From NCBI RefSeq assembly GCF_001447785.1, contig NW_015173696.1, forward strand, positions 322,103-386,102: DNA of 64,000 nucleotides, read 5' to 3'. Shown in pieces: positions 7,691 to 57,210 of this stretch. The notes beneath the pieces are model-generated. The model made no database searches. It was not told where the DNA came from and saw only the letters and a program-made list of their open reading frames with translations. Each line of letters begins with the position of its first letter. Position 1 is the stretch's first letter. A program made the translations under genes and the position numbers. The DNA comes from Gekko japonicus. Taxonomy: Eukaryota.

Positions 7691-8183
7691 NNNNNNNNNN
7701 NNNNNNNNNNNNNNNNNNNNNNNNNNNNNNNNNNNNNNNNNNNNNNNNNNNNNNNNNNNNNNNNNNNNNNNNNNNNNNNNNNNNNNNNNNNNNNNNNNNN
7801 NNNNNNNNNNNNNNNNNNNNNNNNNNNNNNNNNNNNNNNNNNNNNNNNNNNNNNNNNNNNNNNNNNNNNNNNNNNNNNNNNNNNNNNNNNNNNNNNNNNN
7901 NNNNNNNNNNNNNNNNNNNNNNNNNNNNNNNNNNNNNNNNNNNNNNNNNNNNNNNNNNNNNNNNNNNNNNNNNNNNNNNNNNNNNNNNNNNNNNNNNNNN
8001 NNNNNNNNNNNNNNNNNNNNNNNNNNNNNNNNNNNNNNNNNNNNNNNNNNNNNNNNNNNNNNNNNNNNNNNNNNNNNNNNNNNNNNNNNNNNNNNNNNNN
8101 NNNNNNNNNNNNNNNNNNNNNNNNNNNNNNNNNNNNNNNNNNNNNNNNNNNNNNNNNNNNNNNNNNNNNNNNNNNNNNNNNNN
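7691..8183. other. Assembly gap (N run) inside a GC-rich minisatellite
   Basis: N bases with CpG-rich repeated units on both sides. Confidence 0.99.
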
Positions 8184-9492
8184 GCTGGAGTGGCCGCGGG
8201 GGGGTCTGGAGTCGGGCGGCCGCTGGCGGGGGACGCAGTCGCCCGGGCCGAGATTGGGGGGGCAAGGCGGGCGACAGAAGGCCGATGCCTCCGTCGCCCG
8301 GCCCTCTACAGAATCCACCCCCCAAACCTCCAGGTATTTCCCTCCTTAGAGCTGGCAACCCTACATTCCCCTCAGTGCCTGTTGGTAGGCAACTAAGCTT
8401 GGTCCTGTCACCTACTTTGGCCTTTGGGAGAAAACACATTGGGGCCAATCCTGATAGGGTTGCCAACTCCAGATGGGAAATTCCTGGAGACTTGAGGGAT
8501 GGAGCCTGAAGAGGGTGAGGTTTGAGGAGGGGTGGGACCTCAGACAGGTACACTGCCATAGATTCCACCCTCCAAACCAGTCAGTCCCACATAGGGAACC
8601 ATTGTTGCCAATCTCCAGGTGAGGGCTGGAGAGCACTCAGTATTACAACTGCTCTGCAGAAGGGAGGGCAGAAGTCAGCTGAAGTCAAAGGGGCAGATAA
8701 TGGTAGGTTGATGGCTAGCTGGGAAGGAGATGGGGTTGCCAACTACATGCTGACAAATTCCTGGGGATTTGAGGGGTGGAGCCTGGAGAGGGTGGGATTT
8801 GCAGAGGGGTGGGACCTCAGACAGGTAGAATGCCATAGACTCCATCCTCCAAACCAGCCATTTTGTCCAGGGTAACAATTGTTGCCAATCTCCAGGTGAG
8901 GGCTACAGATTACTTACAATTACAACGGCTCTTCAGGTAGCAGAGATCAGTTCCTCTGGAGAAAACAGTGGACTCTGTCATTATACCCTGCTGAGGTCAC
9001 CACAGCAAATTGACACTGTTTGCCCAAAGCCAGAGCACTGCCCCAGAGCCTCTTTCTAGATCCCGTTGTATTGCTTTCACAACGGCCTTTACTGCTAGTA
9101 AATAAATAATACAATAAATGGTGTCACCCAGAAGTGACATTATCATGTCAGAGATGTCAGGGGCAATGCTCCAGTTTTTGGCTAAAACTCTATGGTAAAA
9201 TTGGCTTCAAACCATAGAGTTTTGTCCACAAACCAGAGTGTTGCCCCACTGATGTCCCCAACGTGATGATGTCACTTCTGGGTGACATCATCATGTCAGG
9301 GCCTGCACTTCTGGTTTTACTGGAATTCACCCAGGAAGATCAACTGGAGGCAGGATTTTCCACTGCTGGCTAGCTGGCTGGTGGCGGGCAAGAGCCCAGC
9401 AAAAGTGGGGGTTCCCCTGCCCCCACTGGGAACCCTACTGAGTGCTTTAATAACCAAAAGCAACTAACACAGATGGATAAAAGAGCAGACAA

Positions 9493-11035: not shown

Positions 11036-12079
11036 ACCTAAAATGAATCTGAAGTCCAAGAAGAAGAAACGTATAAGATAAATGGATATTTCAACCGCAT
11101 ATGTGATTATAAAACACCAGAGACTAGTATTAAGATTAAGGTAATGTTAACCAGAATTTTGATAAATTGATCTCTTTCTTATTATTGTAGGATTCTTATA
11201 TATACATTGTAACATTTAGATCACGATCCTTGTCTTAGCTTTTGTTTTAGATATAGTGTTTACCCCCTGTTCCCTTCCCTTTAGGATGTAGGTGATAAAA
11301 TGCAATATAAAAGTTATTTAAAAATAGCCAATAATGAAGAAAAGTAAAATAGTTCTATTGTAAGGTTCCCCCCCACCAACCCGTCCTGGTCAGCTGAATT
11401 TGACAGACGGGACAGGGACAGCTTCAGGAAAGTGATGCAATAATGTACATGCATAACACATCTGCAATTTAGAACAGTTCTGGGGGTTCAGTTAACAAAC
11501 AAGCATTTTTTCAAGTGATGATGTAGCTTGTAATTGGTGATCATATTACAATTCAAACAGAGCAGTGTTTGCCCATCACTCTTCTTACTGGATAATTTGC
11601 ATGAACAAAATCAGTTCAAGGATACATTAGCATGATGAAAAATACAACAGAGAGTGTGTTGGTTCTGAAGTCAGTGGGCTTAAAAAGCTGTCATTCTTGC
11701 ACAGCAAGTCTAGGTAAGGCTCAGAGCTAGTTCTGAAGACCAGGTAAGGAAATACAGTCAATGAATTTTTCATACAGCGACAGATTGGATAAATATACAA
11801 ACAAATGACTGTACTACAAAACAAGGTACCACAGAAGGTACTACATTTGAGATTCCTTCCATCATCTCTTAATCTCTTACCACATGAGCACTTTTTCCAG
11901 TTCTCTCTTGCTTCTTCTTCCACAAACACAGGCAGTCTGATAGCTTGACAACTATTTATTAACTCTGCCTATCTTGCCATTTGCTTGGGGACAGCGGGCA
12001 AGCTCCCACCCCAGGGCTGGTGGAGTTCTTCACTCCAGCAGGAGCAAAAAGCATGGCCAGGTAGCAATGTCACATGACA

Positions 12080-12649
12080 TCTATATATCTAATAGCGAAA
12101 GGTGCCCCCTGCGTGCGGATACCTAAATTCGCGCATCGGGGGCACCTGGGGGGGAGGGAGATTTTTGTGCACACTTGGGGCATTCCCCAGGTGTGCACAA
12201 AAATCTAAAAACCTGAAAAAAATATTGGGGGGATACTTAAATCCCCCCAAAAGTGACAGAGCGTCCCCTGCACATGTGCAGGGGATGCTCTGCGAACTCC
12301 CTCGCCGCCGCCGCTTGGGGGGGGGGAAGAGAGCAGCGAGGCTCGAGCGGCAAGCCACTCGGCCCTCGCTTCGGAGCTGGGGGGGAAGAGCAGCGCCAGC
12401 GAGGCCCCAGCGGCAAGCAGCGAGGCCCCAGCGGCAAGCCGCTCGGGCCTCGCTTCAGAGCCGGGGGGGAGAAAGAGCAGCTTCGAAGCCGGGGGGGAAG
12501 GGAAGGGGGGAGATCGAGCGGGGGGGTGGAGGAGACGAGGGAGGAACCGGCGCGATGGGGGGAAACTTACCTCCTCCTCCTGCTTCCTCCTCTGCCTCCT
12601 GTGTGGAGGTCCCTCCCCCCCCACGAGTATCGCGGGTCCCGCCCCCTTG
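12080..12649 (+). mobile_element. Non-autonomous Helitron-like element, copy 1 (570 bp)
   Basis: 5' TCTATATATCTAATAG, subterminal hairpin cccacga-gta-tcgcggg (12620-12636), 3' CTTG. Inserted between A and T with no TSD; removing it restores the host repeat motif tgaca|tcacttct. Confidence 0.85.
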
Positions 12650-14017
12650 TCACTTCTAATTTGTACCCAGAAGTGACATCATGACACTCTAAGAATTTGC
12701 CCATCACTGTGGTTGGAGATGTACCAATTCCTAGATGATTGCAATGTTTCTTCAGGGTACAAACTGGCAGAGATGCTGTGACATTGCACCCCAGCTCCCG
12801 AACACACTGCTGGATCCAAACACTATAAAGTACAAGTACCTGAATTTTATGTCTGGATTATTTATCATTTCAATTTCTTATTTATTCTGTGTGGCATATC
12901 ACACAGTCTCCTTTTAATTCCCTATTTTAGAAATGTTTTACTGGAGGTCAATTGGATTTTCAATCTTGTGAAAGGTTACGAACTAATTTTCTTTTGTGAA
13001 TTTATTTGTGATCTCTTTGTGAATAATTTATTCAATAGATGAGAGAAGGCTTCATGAATGAATTATTCACAACATATTATTGGGTTATCTATAATGTTGG
13101 CTTGAGATTTTTTTAAAAAAATTACATAATAATTTATTTTCCCCAAATTATTACTACAATTAATCCATGCAGCTCTGGAGAAGTGTTTTATTTATTTCAT
13201 CCATAGTACATTAGTTATTTAACATAGGGTTTTGGGTTTGGGGTTTTTTTTGGAAATGTTGCAGGGTCAAATTATCTGCTTGATGTTCATGTTAGACAAA
13301 ATGTTTTGGCTTTACTTTTATATGTAAATAAATATTACATTTAGTTTGTGGCTGCACATGTATAATTATCTACAGATTTATGGAATGATGACATTGGGTG
13401 ATACTCCCTGCAATATTATGTCTGTGAGGCATCAGAATGCACATTATATGAAGCAAGAAAGAATTATCTTCACCAGTGTTTTGAAATAGAAGCAATTGAT
13501 GAATCCTGGTTGTAGAATGTAGATGAGTTGAGCAACCAGGTGTTATTTTCCTAATGGTTGCCAGTCACATCTTTTCTCTACTTCAAGGAGTCTCAAAACC
13601 TGATTTAAATAATAATAAAAAAGATCTACAGGTGTTCCTAGTCTGTACAACATAGATATATATTCTAGTCCCTAATTCTGCTTTCTGTAAAGCAAATATG
13701 ACATAAATTTAATATCAAAAAGTAAATGTCTAACATAATGTCCCCAAATATTCATTGTAATATTAGTTCTATGAGTGGTACACAGGGAGTCCGACTGTTA
13801 CAGAGTCCGTCATCAAAGGGGAAACATGTTTCTGTAGAATTTCCTGAGATAAATTCATTTTCCAGAGCTGCTACTAGCTATGGAAGTGTGTGTGTGTGGG
13901 GAAGACCTGTACTGCACCTATCTTTCCCTCCTGTATGCTAATAGCATTGCCGGGGGGGGGGGGTTCTACATGAAAAATAGGTTTGGGAGGAAGGGTTAAA
14001 TTCTCTCTCCCAAAAGC

Positions 14018-18019: not shown

Positions 18020-18902
18020 ATGGAATTACATGTCATAGTTGTATATGTAGGGGTGGTTTGTTAGATTAGCATGCAAAATAGTGAAAATATTTTTAAAAAC
18101 AGATCAAAAGAATGACACACTCGGTTTCTGGTTATCATCTGTTTCAGTTCAACTGGGGGGACAGGTAATAAATGTGTTAGAACTGGAGATTGATGTGTCC
18201 TAATTTGTGAGAATCCAGTCCTTAGACCCCCATCCATCTTCTTTCTAGCATGGAGGAGAACTTTACAGCATCTTGGCTGTGCAGAGTATTTTCCGTGCCC
18301 CCCAAAAAAGAGAACTACATTTAAATCTACCATTCCAAATTACATTACATATTCAATTACATTCTTAATTGTTAAGAGCAGTAGTAACATTCTGTTTCAC
18401 TAAAACATGGAGTTAACTGGCAGAATCCTTTTCCTGGGGTACAGTGTTATGTGAGAGATCAACAAGATATTGCATTGCATTACAATCACTATTATAATAT
18501 ACTATTTCCAAAAAGAAAAAAGAAAGAAAGAAAAGAAAAATATCAAAATATAGGGGATGTATAACCCTACTTGGTGAGAATACATATGTGAAGATTGAAT
18601 GACTTAGCATATATAATGAGATAAGAAACCAATATCCCTGTTTAGTCCTGCCGGGGTATTTGTTCTGAGTGTTGTAATAACTTGTAATTCAGCTATGTCC
18701 CTTTCCATTCTGTTCCTGAAGTTCCTTTGCAATAAAACAGCTACTTTGAGGTCAGCCACTGAATGCCATGGAAGGTTGAAGTGTCCCCCTACAGGTTTCT
18801 CAGTCTTGTGATTCCTGATGTCAGATTTGTGTTTATTTATCCTTTGGCATAGGGTTTGTCCTGTTTGTCCTGTGTAGAGAGCCAAAAGGCAATGGTGGCA
18901 TT

Positions 18903-19899
18903 TTGAGAAACCTGTATAAGGGTCAAGAAGTGACAGTTAGAACCGGATATAGAACAACTGATTGGTTTCGCATAGGAAAAGGAGTACGACAAGGATGTAT
19001 ATTTTCACCTTGCTTATTTAATATATATGCAGAGTACATCATGCGAAATGCTGGCCTGGATGAATCACAAGCGGGAATTAAGATTGCTGGGGAAAAGATC
19101 AACAACCTCAGATATGCAGATGATACCACTCTAATGGCTGAAAGTGAAAAGGATCTAAAGAGCCTCTTGCTCAGAGTAAAAGAGGAAAGCGCAAAAGTGG
19201 GCTTGAAGCTCAACATCAAAAAAACTAAGATCATGGCATCCGGCCCCATCACTCCTTGGCAAATAGAAGGGGAAGTCGTGGAAGTAGTGACAGACTTCAC
19301 GTTCCTGGGATCCCAGATCACCACAGACTGTGACTGCAGCCATGAAATTAAAAGACGCCTGCTCCTTGGGAGGAAAGCAATGGCGAACCTAAACAGCATG
19401 ATAAAAAGTAGAGACATCACCCTGCCAACAAAAATACGCATGGTCCAAGCAATGGTATTCCCAGTAGTCATGTATGGCTGTGAGAGTTGGACTATAAGGA
19501 AGGCCGAGCGCCGAAGAATAGATTCTTTTGAACTATGGTGCTGGAGAAGACGTGCTGGAGTCCCTTGGACTGCAAGAAGAACAAATCAGTCAATCCTAAA
19601 AGAAATCAACCCTGATTGTTCCCTGGAAGGCCAGATAATGAAACTGAAGCTCAAATACTTTGGCCACCAAATGAGAAGGGAGCACTCACTGGAGAAGACC
19701 CTGATGCTGGGAAAGATTGAAGGTCAAAGAAGACAGGGATGGCAAAGGATGAGATGGTTAGACAGTGTCATAGATGCAATGAACATGAAATTGAGCGAAC
19801 TTCAGAGGACGGCAGAAGACAGGAAGGCCTGGCATGATCTGGTCCATGGGGTCGCAAAGAGTCGGACTCGACTGTGCGACTGAACAACAATAACAACAA
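18903..19899 (+). mobile_element. RTE-BovB LINE, 5'-truncated, RT C-terminal ORF open
   Basis: 326-aa stop-free ORF: GVRQGCIFSPCLFN...NNLRYADDTTLMAESE...MYGCESWT...LKYFGH...LEKTLMLGKIEG. 3' end ggggtcgcaaagagtcggactcgac + (caa)n. Confidence 0.95.
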
Positions 19900-23138: not shown

Positions 23139-23472
23139 GGCCCCGGTCACATGGGCCGGATATCGCGGTGTGTGTGTGTGTGTGGCAAATTGCCCTGGTG
23201 CAGTTTGATCCGTGAGCCGGCGCATAAACGAGGGGCCGGAGGGGAAAGCCACGCGCCAGCGTGATCACACCGTAGGCATCTGGAGGCATCCCATGGCAAA
23301 CCATTTGCCAGTACTTTGGAGGTACTACTTGTTTATCGCGTGTTTTCAGTGGTAAGCCACGGGTTGGCCACGGGTGCGCTCCATTTCCCAGATGTTGGGG
23401 TGTGATGGCGCATGGGTAATGCACCTACCACCCGTGGTTCTCCCGCGGCAAATTTGCCATGTGAACGGGACC
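23139..23472. mobile_element. PIF/Harbinger-like MITE
   Basis: 16-bp TIR (14/16) GGCCCCGGTCACATGG / CCATGTGAACGGGACC, 3-bp TSD att/att, CpG-rich. Confidence 0.7.
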
Positions 23473-24013: not shown

Positions 24014-24146
24014 NNNNNNNNNNNNNNNNNNNNNNNNNNNNNNNNNNNNNNNNNNNNNNNNNNNNNNNNNNNNNNNNNNNNNNNNNNNNNNNNNNNNNNN
24101 NNNNNNNNNNNNNNNNNNNNNNNNNNNNNNNNNNNNNNNNNNNNNN
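24014..24146. other. Assembly gap
   Basis: N run. Confidence 0.99.
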
Positions 24147-24908: not shown

Positions 24909-25740
24909 TGTCCTTGGAATGAAAACCCCATTGCCCCCCCAGACGGAAGAAATAGTCAGACAACAAGGTTGGATGAAATAAGGCCACTTTATTAAATTAT
25001 TAACTTCTTAACTTAACGGCAAAGGGCAACCATGGAAAAAACAGCAACGGGCCCGGCCTGGTGTCACTTCGACTCCCATCCTCAGCCCTATGAAGCAAGA
25101 CACCGGGGGCCCCCGGGTTGGAGCCAACCATAAGTCGCTTGCAATCCTGGCCGAGCCAAAAATTGGGATGTGCCCTCCAGAGCCCTCAAGCACCCCCACA
25201 TGGCCAGTGCTGAGTCTCCGTCGTGACCATCCCCATAGGTGGTCTGCAAGCTTCGCCCAGGCCGCACGGCTACAAGGCTGGTCGAGCAGACCCCTTTACC
25301 CCCACCCGGGGTTATTAAGTGGTGCTTGCGGCCGCTGAACTGTATTTTTTAACCTAATTCTGCCCTAACAAAGTGACAAACTAGTCCCTAGGCACCACCC
25401 CAGACCAATTCCTCAATCCACTGACCGCAGTGTAGGGTAGGCGAAAAAGACCCCATCTCAATAGCCAATGCGAGAATGGAACCAAAAAATTCCTACCCGG
25501 CTCCCCATTAAACAGGGCAACCAGCCTATGCTTACACTACATACAGGGCGGGTGGGTGGGCCGAGCACGAGGCAAGCTACTGACTGGGGGGAGAGCGGAG
25601 CAAGCCTATTAAGGCTGCCAGGCTCCGCTCCCCCTATTGGAGCCAAGGCTCCACCGCAGTCAGCCTGACTAGTCCTCCTTATGAGGAGGCAAACGCGGTC
25701 CCCACGAGGCACGCTCTGGCTGTCTCGTGCGGGGCCGGAG
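24909..25740 (-). mobile_element. Possible Ngaro/DIRS-type terminal-repeat remnant
   Basis: Sharply GC/CpG-rich block in AT-rich DNA, minus-strand ttAATAAAgtggcc, several GC hairpins, no TSD and no TG..CA pair. Family assignment rests on remembered motif resemblance only. Confidence 0.45.
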
Positions 25741-27417
25741 TGTATCTGGCACTACTGAAAAACACACAAACTATGGCTGTGGTCAGACGTGCCTTTAAAT
25801 CTGACTCATCTGTGAATGCCTGATGGATTTAAAGGGCTTAATAAGACAGCAACATCTGGGAAAGGTCCTGAAGCCATCAACACCCCCTGCTGCCCTGCCA
25901 CGGAAGCGGAGTCAAAAGACACTGGGAAAAGTCTGGTCCTAATGTTTGCCAATGGGCTATGGACGGACTTTCCCCTGTCTGATCACTCAAGCATGCTCTC
26001 ATGCTGTCGGGATGGTCTGCTCATTCCATCCTGATGGTGCCTCCCACCCACCCCGCTTAGCAGTATGTGCATAACTGCATACTCCATGGGGAACCCTCAG
26101 TGCGGAGGTGTGATTCCTCATTTATGTGCATGGGAAACAAAAGGAAACAAATCCACTCACCCAAACATGCCGTCTGATTGGGCAGTGATGGGCTGAGCCC
26201 ACAGCTGCAAAGGATGTGTGATTGTGTAACACCATGTCAATTTCCACCATGGGAAATAGGCTTAGTTTAGAGAATTCTTATATCACTGAATGAAATTTAT
26301 TGTCATTAAAGGGGTATTGATATTATGTATGCGAAGTGCAAACATTCAGTCAAATAAAGCTATATAAGATGTTGTTACAATCCATGGTCACCTCAGAATA
26401 TTGGACCTAAACACTTGTGTACCTGGGAATTAAAATCCAGTTCAATTAAAATTAATAAATTAAGTAACTTCTAAGCATCTCAGATTTACTTAAGCATTTG
26501 CTGTTACAAGAAGTTACTTAATTTATTATAGCCCCCCCCCCAAAAAAAAACCCTCGGATTTGGGGACTCGTGTCAAAATGGCAGGTTGAAATAGAAGGGC
26601 TGTTGGCTAGCACATACTTTAATGGCTTCTTCTAAGATTTCTGTTTGTGCCCACTTGTGGTAAATTTTGCAGATATAATCTGGTTGAACTAGATTTTACA
26701 GTTGGAACACAGTTAATTTACATGCATTTTAATTAATCTGATAAATAACTTGTATTGTCTAAGTCATATCATTGTGCTGCACTCATTCCAGGGCCTTCAG
26801 TCTCTCTATATAACATAGACTTTCCAGCAATTCCTAGAGTGAAGTGATGTCACTTCTTGTTTTTTTCCCAGAAGAGAAGTCATGATGTGCAACACTGCCA
26901 CCCCTATAACCCTGTCCTCCATCTACCTTCAGGCACCTTCATCTCCCTTCAGGCACCTTCAGGTAGGCCATTATGTAATGAGCTGGGGCTTGATAGGGCT
27001 GGGAAACTCTATCAGGTCCCAGCTCATGACATAATGCCCATAACATTATCAAGCTGCCCACTGAGTTTCATGGGCTGGCATGATGGTGTGGCAAGCCTAC
27101 CATTTGGTGTATTCTTGGTGGGGAGGGTGGGGTATAAATTGAATGAATGAATGAATGAATAAATACATTCTTATGGCTCCTTGCCCTACACACCTGTTGG
27201 CTACACACCTGTTGCTGGCTCACTGGCTTTGGGAAGGCGCTCAGAGCTGGACCAAGATTTTACTGTGTTCGAGGCAAACTATGACTTTGACCTCCAGTAG
27301 AGAGAAAAGTGACTAGTCTAGAATTAATGTTAGCTTTGATTTACTTGAGATTTGAAATGAACATAGTAAAAATAAAAGATACTTTACTTTTTTAAAAAAT
27401 AGTCATTAATCCCTAAC

Positions 27418-28040: not shown

Positions 28041-29259
28041 GTAGGAATCTGGGCAAGGGAAGGCAAACCTCCCCTGCGCTACCTCACTGCTTCATGCACT
28101 GTACTGTTTGAACTGTTCTCGTGGGAATATGGGAGGCAGGGTCTCTTGGATGAGGACACAATCCCTGAGATTTCAATTCCAGACAACAGATAAGAATGTA
28201 TTTGCTATAAACCAATGGGAATAGTCAATTAATTCATCTAGATGCCATAATGTTTATTTATTTATTTAAATAATTTGATTTACTAGGCCGCCCTTCCCTA
28301 CAGGTAAGCTTAGGATGGCTTACAACAGTATTATACATTCGCATACAACTACATTAAAAATAGTCAGATAAATAACAATAAATAAGAACAGTATATGTAC
28401 AATACTTAAGATGGTGGAGAATCCTAACTCCCCGGCCTCCCTGGGGGGAGGGTCTATGAGGAATGGGGAACCACATGAGAGTGCCAGAAGAAATCCCATC
28501 ACTGTCCTCAGCCAAAAGCAAATCCAAACAAATATGAATGAATAAAATAATCCAAACATAATAAAATTTCTGTGCACATTTGTATTGTTATATCTTTGAT
28601 TAGGGGTAGCTTTGACAATTGGAGGACAGTTCAGCGCATTTCATGCAAGTGCCCTACATAGATCTGCTTTGCTTATCTCAGTGGGCTGATGGATGTAGGA
28701 TTTATCTTATGGCCCTTTATGACCTAGTTTGAGAGAATACGCTGATATTATCTCTTGGATAGAGATACCCAAGTACAAACTAAATGTCTGTTGTACAGTG
28801 GCTGAAAATGGCGTATCATCAATATACTTAACTCTCAACATGGCCAAATCCAAGAATACTTAAATCTGGAGACCAGTGCCATGACGAGACAAGACAAATC
28901 TTTCTTCAAGTCTGAGAAAAGCCCTAGAGCTGAAGAAAAATCTGAAGTTTTCAAACATACACGCACACAAACAAACACTGAGGGGTTAAAACCCCCAAAT
29001 AATAGAAGCAAGGCTGGTAGATTTAAGAAACAAATGCCTCTATGGCTATTGTTAGGCAACCACAATAGTAATCCAAGACCTTAGGCCTTAGTTTCTGTCT
29101 GTAAAAGGCAGGGGCCTCCAGAGTTGTTTTGGCCTTTGAGGGAAAACTTAATGGGGCAAGGCCAAGCAGCAACCGTGGGGTGACTTGCTACAATGTGACT
29201 TGCATGACTCACCCACGCTAGACTGTTTGCTACTGTTCAAAAACATTCATCCCACAGAA

Positions 29260-29523: not shown

Positions 29524-29558
29524 NNNNNNNNNNNNNNNNNNNNNNNNNNNNNNNNNNN
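29524..29558. other. Assembly gap
   Basis: N run. Confidence 0.99.
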
Positions 29559-30092
29559 GGAAAGAGGAAATAGTGTGGGGAAGAGTATAGATGGGAAAAT
29601 AAGGTGCCCTCTGCAAGTCCTTGCAGGTTCCCTACAATGCAACTGGGATTAGCCCAGTGACTGGCAGTGCACAATTCAGTCATAGTTTTCCTAGGCAGAG
29701 GCTGTCAGGGGACAGAAGGAGGGAAATCTGAAGACAGGGGAGCAAATAAAGGTAGGGTGGCTGGGGGTGGGAAGGAGAGAAGGAAGCAGAAAAAGGGCAG
29801 AGGCTATGGGGGCTTTCAGAGAAGGAAAAGATGAAATATGGTGGGGGAATGAGATGCCACCACAAGGTCCTCTGTCAATATATCTAATTCTCAACAAAGT
29901 CCCATCTGTGGACACTTAAATCCAAAGAACAGAGGCATGAACAAATACGACAGAACTTGCTACAAACCTGGGAAAAGCTCAAGGTTTGCAGAAAAATCTG
30001 AACACCTTGAAGCAAATTCAGTATTCAACTTGAAGCCAGTGCAGCTGGTGAAGCACAGGTCAAAAGTGTGCAGTCATTGTGGTACTCATAAG

Positions 30093-31474: not shown

Positions 31475-32014
31475 TCTATATATCTAATAGTAAACTTGCC
31501 CCCGGAGTGCGGATCACTAAATCAGCGCTCCGGGGGCAGCTGGAGGGCCGGGGGAGGTTTGTGCACACGTGGGCCAGTCCCCACGTGTGCACAAAAATAA
31601 AAAAAGTTAAAAAAAAATTCGGGGGGATGTTTAAATCCCCCCAAAAGTGCAAGAGCGTCTCCTGCACGTGTGCAGGAGACGCTCTGCGAACGCTGCCGCC
31701 TCCTCCTCCTCCTCCTCGGAGCCGGCAGGCAGGCAGGCTGGCCGGGTGGGGAGGGAGGGAGGGCAGGGAAGACAGGCCTCGCTGCCGCCGCTGCCTCCTC
31801 CCCGGAGCCGGCAGGCAGGCAGGCAGGGAGGGCGGGAGGGCGAAGACAGGCCTCGCTGCCGCCTCCTCCTCCTCCCTGGAGCCGGCAGGCAGGCAGGCAG
31901 GGTGGGCGGGGGGGACACCGGCCTCGCCACCACCACCGCCGCGGGGAGATCAAGGGGGGGATGGAGGAGACGGAGCTCTTCTCCCCCCCACGAGTATCGC
32001 AGGTCCCCCTCTTG
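31475..32014 (+). mobile_element. Non-autonomous Helitron-like element, copy 2 (540 bp)
   Basis: Identical 16-nt 5' end TCTATATATCTAATAG, hairpin remnant cccacgagtatcgcagg, 3' CTTG, site ttgcA|Tttatc with no TSD. Confidence 0.85.
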
Positions 32015-47667: not shown

Positions 47668-49200
47668 GGAGCTCAAGTGGTTAAGATGCTGAACTGAAGG
47701 CTGTGGAAGGCCGGTAGTTCAGCAGTTCGAGACCCAAGCAGTTCGAGACAGAGAGTGAGTATAAATGGGCAGTTCTCTCAGTGGAGGGGGGTAAGCAGTG
47801 GGGTACCGCAGGGATCAGTACTTGGTCCACTGCTTTTTAACTTGTTCATTAATGATTTGGAGTTGGGAGTAAGCAGTGAAGTGGCTAAATTTGCGGATGA
47901 TACGAAGTTGTTCAGGGTGGTGAAAACCAGTGAGGATTGTGAGGCACTCCAAAGGGATCTGTCAAAGATGGGCAAGTGGGCGTCAACATGGCAAATGGGG
48001 TTCAATGTGGCCAAGTGCAAGGTGATGCACATTGGAGCCAAAAATCCTAAATATAAATACACATTGATGGGGTCTGAACTGGCAGAGACAGATCAAGAGA
48101 GAGATCTTGGAGTTGTAGTAGATAACTCACTGAAAATGTCAAGACAGTGTGTGACTGCAATAAAGAAGGCCAATGCTATGCTGGGGATTATTAGGAAGGG
48201 TATTGTAAACAGATCAGCCAATATCATAATGCCGCTATATAAATCAATGGTGCGACCTCATCTGGAATACTGTGTGCAATTCTGGTCACCACACCTTAAA
48301 AAGGATATTATAGCTTTGGAAAAAGTGCAGAAAAGAGCAACTCGAATGATAAAAGGGTTGGAACACTTTCCCTATGAGGAAAGGTTAAAGCGCTTAGGGC
48401 TCTTTAGCTTGGAGAAAAGACGACTGAGGGGTGACATGATCGAGGTTTATAAGATTATGCATGGGAAAGAGCAGGTAGAGAAAGAGGTACTTTTCTCCCT
48501 TTCTCACAATACAAGAACCCGTGGGCACTCCATGAAATTGCTGAGCGGTCGGGTTAGAACGGATAAAAGGAAGTACTTCTTCACCCAAAGAGTGATTAAC
48601 ACTTGGAATTCACTGCCACAGGAAGTGGTGGCAGCTACAAGCATGGACGGCTTCAAAAGGGAATTAGATAAGCATATGGAGCAGAGGTCCATCAGTGGCT
48701 ATTAGCCACAAGGTATAGATAGGGACTCTGGGGCAAGTGATGCTCTGTCATCTTGGTGCTTGGGGGGGGGTCAACAGTGGGAGGGCTTCTAATGTCCTGG
48801 CCCCACTGGTGGACCTCCTGATGGCACTGGTATTTCTGGCCACTGTGTGACACAGAGTGTTGGACTGGATGGGCCTTTGGCCTGATCCAACATTGGCATC
48901 TCTTATGTTCTTATGTTCTTATGTTCAAGTTGCCGCATGACGGAGTGAGCTCCCGTCTCTATTTCCAGCTCCTGCCAACCTAGCAGTTCGAAAGCAAGAA
49001 ATTGCAAGTAGATGAATAGGTACCACTTCAGTGGGAAGGTAACAGCATTCTGTGCGCCTTGGTGTTTAGTTATGCCGGCCACATGACCACGGAAATGTCT
49101 TCGGACAGCGTTGGCTCTTTGGCTTTTAAACGGAGATGAACACCGCAACCCTAGAGGCGGATTTGACTGGGTTTCGAGTAAGGGAACCTTTACCTTTTAA
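47668..49200 (+). mobile_element. Sauria SINE split by a CR1 insertion
   Basis: The two halves (47668-~47749, 48926-49200) join into a near copy of 50637-50987. (ACCTTT)n tail, TSD aagcaagcttag (47656-47667 / 49201-49212). Confidence 0.9.
47750..48925 (+). mobile_element. Young CR1 LINE, 5'-truncated; RT ORF 47755-48705 stop-free
   Basis: SGVPQGSVLGPLLFNLFINDL...KFADDTKL...LEYCVQFWSP...RLRGDMIEVYKI...TRGH; octamer tail (TCTTATGT)3. Confidence 0.95.
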
Positions 49201-54650: not shown

Positions 54651-56801
54651 TCTTCTTTTTTTAATATTATATTTATTTGGTTTTATAAGCCTATATCGTA
54701 CACATATGCAAAATCATCAGCAAGATTACATACATAAAAAATCCTTAGACAGCACTTATCCTTTCTAGCAACACAGAATAGCATATCCAACATACCTACA
54801 ATAAATAGTTTTATCCTTATTCTCAATCTTAATATCAAATCTGTATTGAATGAAAACTTATGTTTCTTTATCCTTTAAGGTTTATGTACTGTCTTCTCAG
54901 AACTACACTAAAGGTTCATATCTGTATTGTAAATCATTCATATTTGCTTGTTACATTTCTCCTTTTCTTCACCTTGTACAGTTCTGGCTCTTATCCCATC
55001 TCCTATGTCTTACCATTTCTATGCTTTCGATATAGGGGCTTAGCTTAATATTTAGTTTTTATATCTTTTTTCTTTTATTGCCCTTTTTACTTTTAATTCA
55101 ATCTTTATAGCTTTTATGTTTTATTAACATTCTATTGGAACCTTTATCTCTACTTTCACTCTCATAATTGCTCTATTATTTTCTTTTAAATATAAATTTT
55201 CCATTAAATTCCCTCAGTATCTTTCAATTATAAACTGCCAGGCCTTCACCCATCCTTATTTGGTCTAAAGTTAACCTAAATATACCATACTCATTCTACA
55301 CTGTTATCAAAAGTAAATTTGAACCTACTTATAACACAACCAAACCTTCTAACCAAAGTCAAAATTAATTTTCAACCACAATATTCCAATACGATCATTT
55401 ATCCAATAGCCCTAATATTTCCTTCACCTTTTATCTTTAAAACCTAATATTTCCATCACCTTTTATCTTTTATCTTTAAAATACACCTCCTAATCACCAC
55501 TAGTTTACAACAAAAATACAAATTTAAATACATAAATAAGTAGGTTTTAGGTCAATTTTCCATCTAATCTTTTATCTGAAAAAAATCAATCTTTCTATCT
55601 TTTCATATGGCTTATTTTTCCTCTTGAACATTTGCAGTCTACTTTTCTGTCTCAGCATTGACTTTTTTCAGATAAAAGAAATGGTAAATTAATAGTCCTG
55701 CTGTCTCAGCATGTCTACATGTCTACGTTCTTTAAACATTCCTTGACTTCCATGCCTCTCCTCTCTGATTTTCAGCCATTCTAGTCTCCAGGATCTATTG
55801 TCTCCTTTAAATTTCCACGCCCATCATTTCCTTCTTTTGGTCCTTTTATCACTCTCTCGTTCAGGCTTTAAGCATTGTCTGTTTTCTTTTGGCAGTCCCA
55901 ATTTAGTACCAGGCAATTTTTAAAAAAGTTATTTCCTACCATTTCCATTGGCAAACCTTTAGGTTCTACATAGTCATTCATTTGTATACTCCCCAAATTA
56001 TCCTTCCTTAACATAGTCCCTGTTCTTTGTTTGACCCTCTTCTGGAGCCTCCTTCACAGAAAATTGTTCCTCCTTTTCCTCTATTTCTACTTGTATGTTA
56101 TACTTCTTCCTTAATTCTGCACACACTTCTTCACATCCTTTTTGCACCACCTCTTTCACAACTCTAAGGAACTGCTCAATAGTCATCTCCCCAACTTCCA
56201 TGTTTTCGTCAAGTTCCTCCTCTTTTCTCACTATGCACTCCATTTCAGACAAGCTCTTTCAGGTTCCAACCACAAAATTATCTTATTGTCCTACAGTCTC
56301 TTTACCAAGCCATTATCCTCATTTTAGCTCCTTGCCAGAACCAGAACCATGCGAAAACACCAACATTCATCCTTCTCTTCCCCCACCGGAATATCAACCT
56401 GCAATTAAGTCCTGTATATTTCCCGGCCGCTCTACTTCACATATTTGGACACATTTGTTTGGGGGTTTTTTTCACCTTTCCACTTCTTCTCTTCTTCTGT
56501 GTTGCTGCAGTTACACATCCACGTAAATTTAAAAACAAGTCCGGATGGTCGCATCTAATCAGAACATGGCAGCCATATTCTTTCCCCACAATCGCTCCGC
56601 ATCAGGGCGGTCCTGGTCACCCCCCCGCTTGCCGATTATGGGAGGGGCCAGAGAACAGATCCCCCTGCTCCAGCCCTCTCTCAGGGAGGGCTGGTCGAGC
56701 TCTCCCGGCGTTCGGGAGGCTTAAAGGAAAGTGAAAGTCGGACAGGCGGCTCGGAGCGAGCCGAGCACCTGCCCGTCGTCATGCCGTACCAGAAGGAAGT
56801 C
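54651..56801 (-). mobile_element. 2.15-kb non-autonomous retroposon with L1-like ends
   Basis: Perfect 18-bp TSD caacgtacagttgcttct (54633-54650 / 56802-56819). Minus-strand 5' GACTTCC start, CpG-rich ~250-nt head, purine-rich body, AATAAA + A-rich tail. No RT motifs. Confidence 0.8.
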
Positions 56802-57017
56802 CAACGTACAGTTGCTTCTATGCATTTGCTTGGAACAAACTTTCAAGAGTGCAGAAAGTTTAAAAAAAGATAACATGCTAACAAGCTCATTACTTTTTAA
56901 TTACCATTCAAATTTAGGAATGAGATAAATAGGACTTGATTCAAACCCTAACAGATGGACCTCTCGCCATCAGCCTCCATCCTTCAGCTATCAATCTCTG
57001 CTCTTTCCTATCCAAAG

Positions 57018-57210
57018 TGTACTTCTCAAATAAAGATAAGTATTTCTCTTCTAAACTTGCAATGTGGCTCTGTGTAGCTTTGTACTTCTCAAATAAAGAT
57101 AAGTATTTCTCTTCTAAACTTGCAATGTGGCTCTGTGTAGCTTTGTACTTCTCAAATAAAGATAAGTATTTCTCTTCTAAACTTGCAATGTGGCTCTGTG
57201 TAGCTTTGTA
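57018..57210. repeat. Perfect 63-bp tandem triplication
   Basis: Units start at 57018, 57081 and 57144; tgta microhomology at the ends. Confidence 0.95.

Follow-up and report, generated by a model that had tools for sequence, protein, structure and literature searches.

The window, which is the whole stretch of 64,000 nt of Gekko japonicus DNA analysed here, carries two short elements with shared ends (Table 1). The first of them (copy 1) opens with TCTATATATCTAATAG directly behind an A. An earlier sequence-only reading had proposed a non-autonomous Helitron at this place, and its coordinates, TC start and CTTG end proved exact, with the same ends present in the second element (copy 2). The two copies are 82% identical across their 5' ~217-218 nt (E 1e-57), where 38 of 217 aligned letters differ, and 24 of 25 letters agree in the surroundings of the 3' hairpin. 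The alignment of their flanks breaks off at both termini, and their middles are dissimilar; that of copy 1 contains a 21-nt unit twice (12397-12439) and a 63-nt repeat (12332-12394 and 12416-12481).

The window contains several further features. Reverse transcriptase (Pfam RVT_1) is found in two unbroken frames, one of 354 aa at 18819-19883 and one of 335 aa at 47698-48705; they are apparently young and presumably represent the 3' parts of an RTE/BovB-like and a CR1-like LINE, respectively, whereas a frame at 18604-18936 with a sub-threshold GIY-YIG match is presumably Penelope-like. These were the only such matches (two and one, respectively) when Pfam was searched with 19 of the 55 stop-to-stop frames of at least 110 aa. 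Three identical 63-nt tandem copies at 57018-57210 possibly reflect an assembly duplication. Runs of N at 7691-8183, 24014-24146 and 29524-29558 mark assembly gaps, the first of which is flanked by an 88-nt repeat of 99% identity.

Table 1. Coordinates of the Helitron-type elements and associated features in the window.
Feature	Coordinates	Strand	Evidence and remarks
Helitron-type non-autonomous element, copy 1	12080..12649	+	570 nt; exact 570-nt skip in runs X2 and X3
Target A, left side of copy 1	12079..12079	+	read from the sequence; reads and contigs diverge just outside
5' terminus of copy 1, TC then TA-rich run	12080..12095	+	all 16 letters the same in copy 2
Internal hairpin 1	12100..12147	+	first 150 nt fold with z -8.3; copy 2, z -8.5
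Internal hairpin 2, 22-pair stem	12159..12206	+	folding and self-comparison
Internal hairpin 3, 10-pair stem	12225..12250	+	folding
Internal hairpin 4, 16-pair stem	12257..12292	+	z -8.0; copy 2, z -7.7
Variable GC-rich middle of short repeated units	12298..12600	+	differs from copy 2
Subterminal hairpin, 7-pair stem with one mismatch, 3-nt loop	12620..12636	+	13 nt from the end of copy 1
3' terminus of copy 1, CTTG, not CTRR	12646..12649	+	likewise in copy 2 (32011-32014)
Target T, right side of copy 1	12650..12650	+	sequence and empty site
Older host repeat split by copy 1	12060..12700		small inverted-repeat element; halves continue the arm 12669-12687
More decayed 5' relic	28818..28950	+	A|TC start; 71% like the 29875 relic over 128 nt
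Decayed 5' relic	29875..30020	+	80 of 134 aligned letters as in copy 1; G ahead
Copy 2, 540 nt	31475..32014	+	A|TC start, CTTG|T end, hairpin 31987-32003, 74-nt tandem unit in the middle

Termini, hairpins and base composition

Comparison of left-flank suffixes with right-flank prefixes gave no target site duplication (TSD) of 1-20 nt in either copy. Terminal inverted repeats are absent, the longest inverted matches between the first and the last 60 nt being 5 and 6 nt in the two copies, and terminal direct repeats amount to nothing past 5-7 low-complexity letters in either. None of the eight frames across the two copies (none of the five overlapping copy 1) matched a Pfam family, the tRNA scan found nothing, and all 15 Rfam matches are weak and far below the gathering score. 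SINEs are recognized by a TSD together with a tail or an RNA-derived head, and MITEs by terminal inverted repeats. The elements are short, GC-rich, abundant and hairpin-rich, and the filled allele is seen in the window only, all of which might suggest a SINE, a MITE or an assembly artefact. However, the SINE and MITE readings are contradicted by the lack of a duplication, a tail, terminal inverted repeats, a tRNA or a near-threshold Rfam match, and the artefact reading by two independent copies with base-exact shared ends and by hundreds of reads that share the 5' boundary. This group of explanations is largely refuted, and we give it hardly any credence.

The subterminal hairpin announced by the earlier reading lies in the right place but is imperfect in both copies and no better than in shuffled sequences. 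An HLE1 Helitron would carry a hairpin of 16-20 nt about 10-13 nt ahead of its 3' end. The stem-loop seen here measures 17 nt; in copy 1 it retains six of seven pairs, and in copy 2, where it stands 11 nt from the end, five of seven as judged by reading. Folding of the two 3' ends gave z values of +0.32 and -0.75 against shuffles. A generic scan for a hairpin plus an end returned four sites in the window, one of which is the end of copy 1, and missed copy 2. In at least 80 reads of related copies from the raw-read run X11 (described below), which have a loose end behind 12598, the left arm reads CCCGCG and thereby completes the stem. The window copies depart from this stem through CpG-to-CpA changes, which have likely arisen by decay since insertion.

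Far stronger than the 3' hairpin are four internal hairpins in the 5' 215 nt of both copies (12100-12292 and 31497-31686). When the 64 base pairs of these hairpins in copy 1 are laid on copy 2, 49 are the same, two are replaced on both sides by another standard pair, three are kept by one-sided or G-T changes and 10 are broken; coming from two copies only, these counts are equally compatible with the presence and the absence of selection on the hairpins.

Copy 1 has 64% GC and 39 CpG dinucleotides with an observed/expected ratio (o/e) of 0.68, and copy 2 has 66% GC and an o/e of 0.62, compared with 0.23 for the window, in agreement with the high CpG retention described before. The count of 39 CpG is reached by none of 1,178 other 570-nt segments, their maximum being 26. 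CpG islands are commonly delimited by a GC content of 50% and an o/e of 0.6, and four of the 1,178 segments, lying in two other patches, also pass these thresholds. The description of the elements as CpG-island-like patches is thus right as to composition, but such a composition is expected of any young GC-rich insertion, and the abundance of CpG likely reflects the youth of the elements and not a function. Further CpG-rich patches at 23140-23470, 25050-25740 and 56250-56870 have no sequence kinship to the Helitron; the second of them resembles, by eye, a solitary repeat end.

Empty alleles, copy number and age of the family

Four of 19 public runs (X2, X3, X7 and X11) were mapped on positions 11600-13150 at 80% likeness. 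In run X2, from organism A, which bears the label of the species that matches the window best, one contig (depth 49.3) joins 12079 directly to 12650, skipping 570 letters that begin with TC and end with TG; its left flank is 480 nt long and its right flank 22 nt. The same exact skip of 570 letters is found in run X3, from organism B, in one contig of 2,600 nt whose short side measures 255 nt and whose record coordinates are contiguous. In run X7, from organism C, a single contig comprises 11872-12082 and 12653-13123, and the two pieces adjoin in its record coordinates. We take this contig for an empty site whose cut lies three letters away, although it is not listed as the same joint as in X2 and X3. 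Among the X11 raw reads, which cover the flanks at ~0.4-0.8x, none crosses the site, either filled or empty. No piece across the filled junction is listed in any of the four runs mapped, so that the filled allele is represented by the window assembly alone; the contigs used for the empty site drop rare alleles.

Copy 1 is therefore absent in three of the four runs mapped (exactly in X2 and X3, by coordinates in X7), and its insertion neither added nor removed host letters. The insertion interrupts an older host repeat, as had been suggested; paralogues of the repeat occur at 9118-9291 and 26829-26900. The flanks differ from the window at 12 of 480 letters in X2, 22 of 501 in X3 (right side) and 22 of 471 in X7 (right side), and the differences of X2 indicate a haplotype or lineage of its own that bears the same species label. 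Besides these 12 substitutions per 480 flank bases, X2 has a 22-nt insertion and a 5-nt deletion relative to the window, near 11816 and 11865. Since the site is empty in organisms B and C, the insertion of copy 1 postdates the split from both of them; it likely also postdates the split from the X2 haplotype.

The size of the family was estimated from run X11, which consists of raw reads totalling 1,675 million letters. Its depth reaches 1,281 at 12172-12223 and 367 and 242 in the bins of 12536-12639, and falls to 7.7 in the lowest bin of the middle of copy 1, a region where the X2 contigs show many skips and back-jumps; the flanks have a depth of 0.42 when 16 bins are taken and of 0.76 for the 8 bins on the left. 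These values correspond to ~1,100-3,000 copies of the 5' part, ~200-900 copies of a 3' part like that of copy 1 and ~7-18 copies of its exact middle, all of them rough estimates whose yardstick is either the flank depth, with its few reads, or an assumed genome of 1.5-2.5 Gb. The earlier impression of a high-copy family is thereby confirmed. The family also occurs in organisms B and C. The exact 5'-end pattern occurs in none of the viral contigs and none of the metagenome contigs searched, and 11 metagenome loci retrieved with the 3'-end pattern were rejected as chance matches, as the match never extended beyond 15-27 letters and the 5' part was absent.

Loose ends just outside the target A were found in at least 224 X11 reads, with at least 75 more one base further, and in at least 55 X2 and at least 63 X3 contigs. 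Their flanks agree at only 0.36-0.40, which implies many unrelated insertion sites with an A ahead of the TC. Among the loose ends listed (six per run) there are no 5' ends lacking this A, and for X7 no loose end at the 5' boundary. The T side of the insertion and the CTTG|T end were read in the two window copies only.

Among 3,783 X11 reads, 12 are at least 99% like copy 1, 215 are 95-99%, 1,119 are 90-95% and 2,437 are below 90% alike; the likeness thus reaches 95% in 227 reads and stays below it in 3,556, most family reads falling at 80-95%. In addition, heavily decayed relics of the 5' part lie in the window at 28818 and at 29875; both start at the same TC, and they were chosen after a motif scan. 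A profile built from the two copies failed to separate them from shuffled sequences (for the 29875 relic, a weak 10.7 bits, with one of 10 shuffles scoring higher), but an anchored alignment did so, with z values of 8.2 for the 29875 relic and 5.1 for the 28818 relic, neither of which was reached by any of 2,500 TC-start controls. A 3' end was sought for both relics and none was found. By their sequence likeness, the relics point to a much older wave of what would be the same Helitron lineage. The lineage is old and diverse, with several waves and at least one young branch; its age is apparent from the few reads that are at least 95% like copy 1 and from the two relics. What had been called a fairly recent family is thus better described as a young copy, as judged from the empty alleles, in an old lineage.

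Class assignment and the CTTG end

Published definitions of the two Helitron types assign to HLE1 a 5' TC, a hairpin with CTRR and insertion at A|T, and to HLE2 terminal inverted repeats of 11-18 nt and insertion at T|T (PMC11417382). Both window copies have the 5' TC and the A|T site and lack a TSD and terminal inverted repeats, and the empty site agrees with the A|T insertion without TSD that had been claimed. The strict CTRR end is absent from both copies, whereas both end in the broader CT[A/T]G form that the authors of HELPO2 give for its end (PMC4289320). With the 5' TC, the A|T site and the lack of a TSD on the side of HLE1, a subterminal hairpin that is in place but degraded, no strict CTRR, and the features of HLE2 missing, we assign the elements to the HLE1 type by the broader rule for the end and do not count them as a canonical CTRR family. 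We are confident that they belong to this type irrespective of the usual end of the family. Our preferred reading goes further and is held as probable: a non-autonomous HLE1-type Helitron whose RepHel is supplied from elsewhere in the genome and whose family usually ends in CTTG. The non-autonomous Helitron character proposed from the letters is borne out by the empty alleles, the flanks of the loose ends and the read depth.

Within the 64-kb window, the profiles of both ends were matched by the two short copies only, and Helitron or PIF1 families are absent from the 19 of 55 frames of at least 110 aa that were scanned. As no partner enzyme was identified, the class rests on structure, which leaves some room for another element that inserts without duplication, such as a derivative of HLE2 (Helentron/Helitron2), of a different HUH element or of a tyrosine-recombinase (Crypton-type) element. 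Cryptons are recognized by terminal direct repeats; in our copies such a repeat never exceeds 7 nt and is of low complexity. The failure of strict CTRR and the four long internal hairpins, which are outside the textbook picture of HLE1, would fit this alternative as well, but the two ends share no inverted match longer than 5-6 nt and the site is A|T, not T|T, both of which speak against HLE2. We consider such an origin very unlikely and retain the HLE1-type assignment.

The elements might also belong to an ordinary CTAG-ended Helitron family, CTTG being a minor branch or a chance change, with the mechanism unchanged. Only two ends were read from a diverse family (3,556 of 3,783 X11 reads are less than 95% like copy 1), and the 3' depth (242-367) is about a quarter of that at the 5' side, so most 5' ends may be paired with 3' regions unlike that of copy 1; moreover, vertebrate relatives in architecture end in CTAG, as published (PMC12001565). 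However, CTTG is common to both copies despite 18% divergence of their 5' parts and different middles, which favours inheritance over two independent changes, and copy 1 has moved recently, so that its end is probably the one that was used. An ordinary CTAG family is accordingly unlikely in our judgement. As for the CTTG family end proposed by the sequence-only reading, it is seen in both window copies (two of two), but it is not new, as CTTG ends have been published before (PMC4289320, PMC4778049).

A mechanism for the preferred reading, the CTTG-ended HLE1-type element, can be sketched by analogy with Helraiser (PMC4778049). The RepHel would begin with a nick at the 5' TC, from which one strand is peeled off; the subterminal hairpin would stop it, and the cut would fall after CTTG; the freed strand, probably via a circle, would then be joined between A and T at a new site. 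In the Helraiser experiments, the RepHel cuts single-stranded DNA both at the 5' TC and at the right end, requires the left end, has the hairpin as a terminator, forms circles, inserts mostly at AT and moves non-autonomous elements in trans (PMC4778049). In the same study, vectors without the hairpin or the right end yielded junctions of the form CTTG|T at three sites (PMC4778049), which indicates that CTTG can be used as an end by an HLE1 enzyme.

Relation to known Helitrons and significance

A close parallel is provided by HelibatN of bats, which is moved by Helraiser and, as described, shares the 5' TC, a hairpin 11-13 nt from the end, the A|T site, the lack of a TSD and numerous short non-coding copies; our elements differ by CTTG instead of CTAG, by a hairpin degraded in both copies, by the four long internal hairpins and by a partner transposase that was not identified (PMC4778049). 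Heli1Xen1, compared here by its published description only, has a similar left end, with TA-rich letters behind the TC, and a hairpin of the form CCCG...CGGG but ends in CTAG in each species and has another hairpin core (PMC12001565). It is a vertebrate HLE1 that is described from 13 vertebrate genomes, with hosts among Xenopus, lacertid and cordylid lizards, toads, caecilians and bichirs, and its non-autonomous copies number from hundreds to over twenty thousand per genome (PMC12001565). The fungal HELPO2 of Pleurotus ostreatus, likewise compared by description, shares the 3' CTTG, the AT insertion and a subterminal hairpin (PMC4289320), and HeligloriaB of Anolis carolinensis, again compared by description, is a lizard Helitron subfamily with 667 copies, 579 bp of which were compared, and with CTRR given as standard (PMC2997563).

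In the literature searched, which was mostly open-access text without figures, we found no description of a CTTG-ended vertebrate Helitron family. The main text, without figures, of the maize Helitron paper cited for CTTG contains no occurrence of it (PMC3288121), a grapevine preprint has it inside primers only, and it is absent from the HELIANO supplement, where two squamate genomes are sampled. A squamate review, in its available text, mentions Helitrons in passing only (PMC10379679). The right-end search of HELIANO demands a CTRR stem-loop (PMC11417382), and if CTTG is the end of the family, finders that demand CTRR, such as HELIANO, would overlook it. In that case, the partner transposase would also lend itself to testing what determines the position of the 3' cut.

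A broader proposal is possible, though we regard it as doubtful: that this is an active vertebrate Helitron lineage whose RepHel has shifted to CTTG ends and which creates CpG-rich, hairpin-dense patches that are present or absent within a species, the 5' hairpins kept between subfamilies being working parts of the donor. For the most part the finding is ordinary, namely a young copy from a non-autonomous Helitron family that is abundant and long-lived and has a 3' end that is less common, though not without precedent. It adds one more such family to the vertebrates, where thousands of short copies have already been reported in lizards, frogs and bats. That copy 1 is lacking in another sample with the same species label speaks for recent activity; with such activity, the insertions would be usable as lineage markers, and an intact RepHel would be worth seeking.
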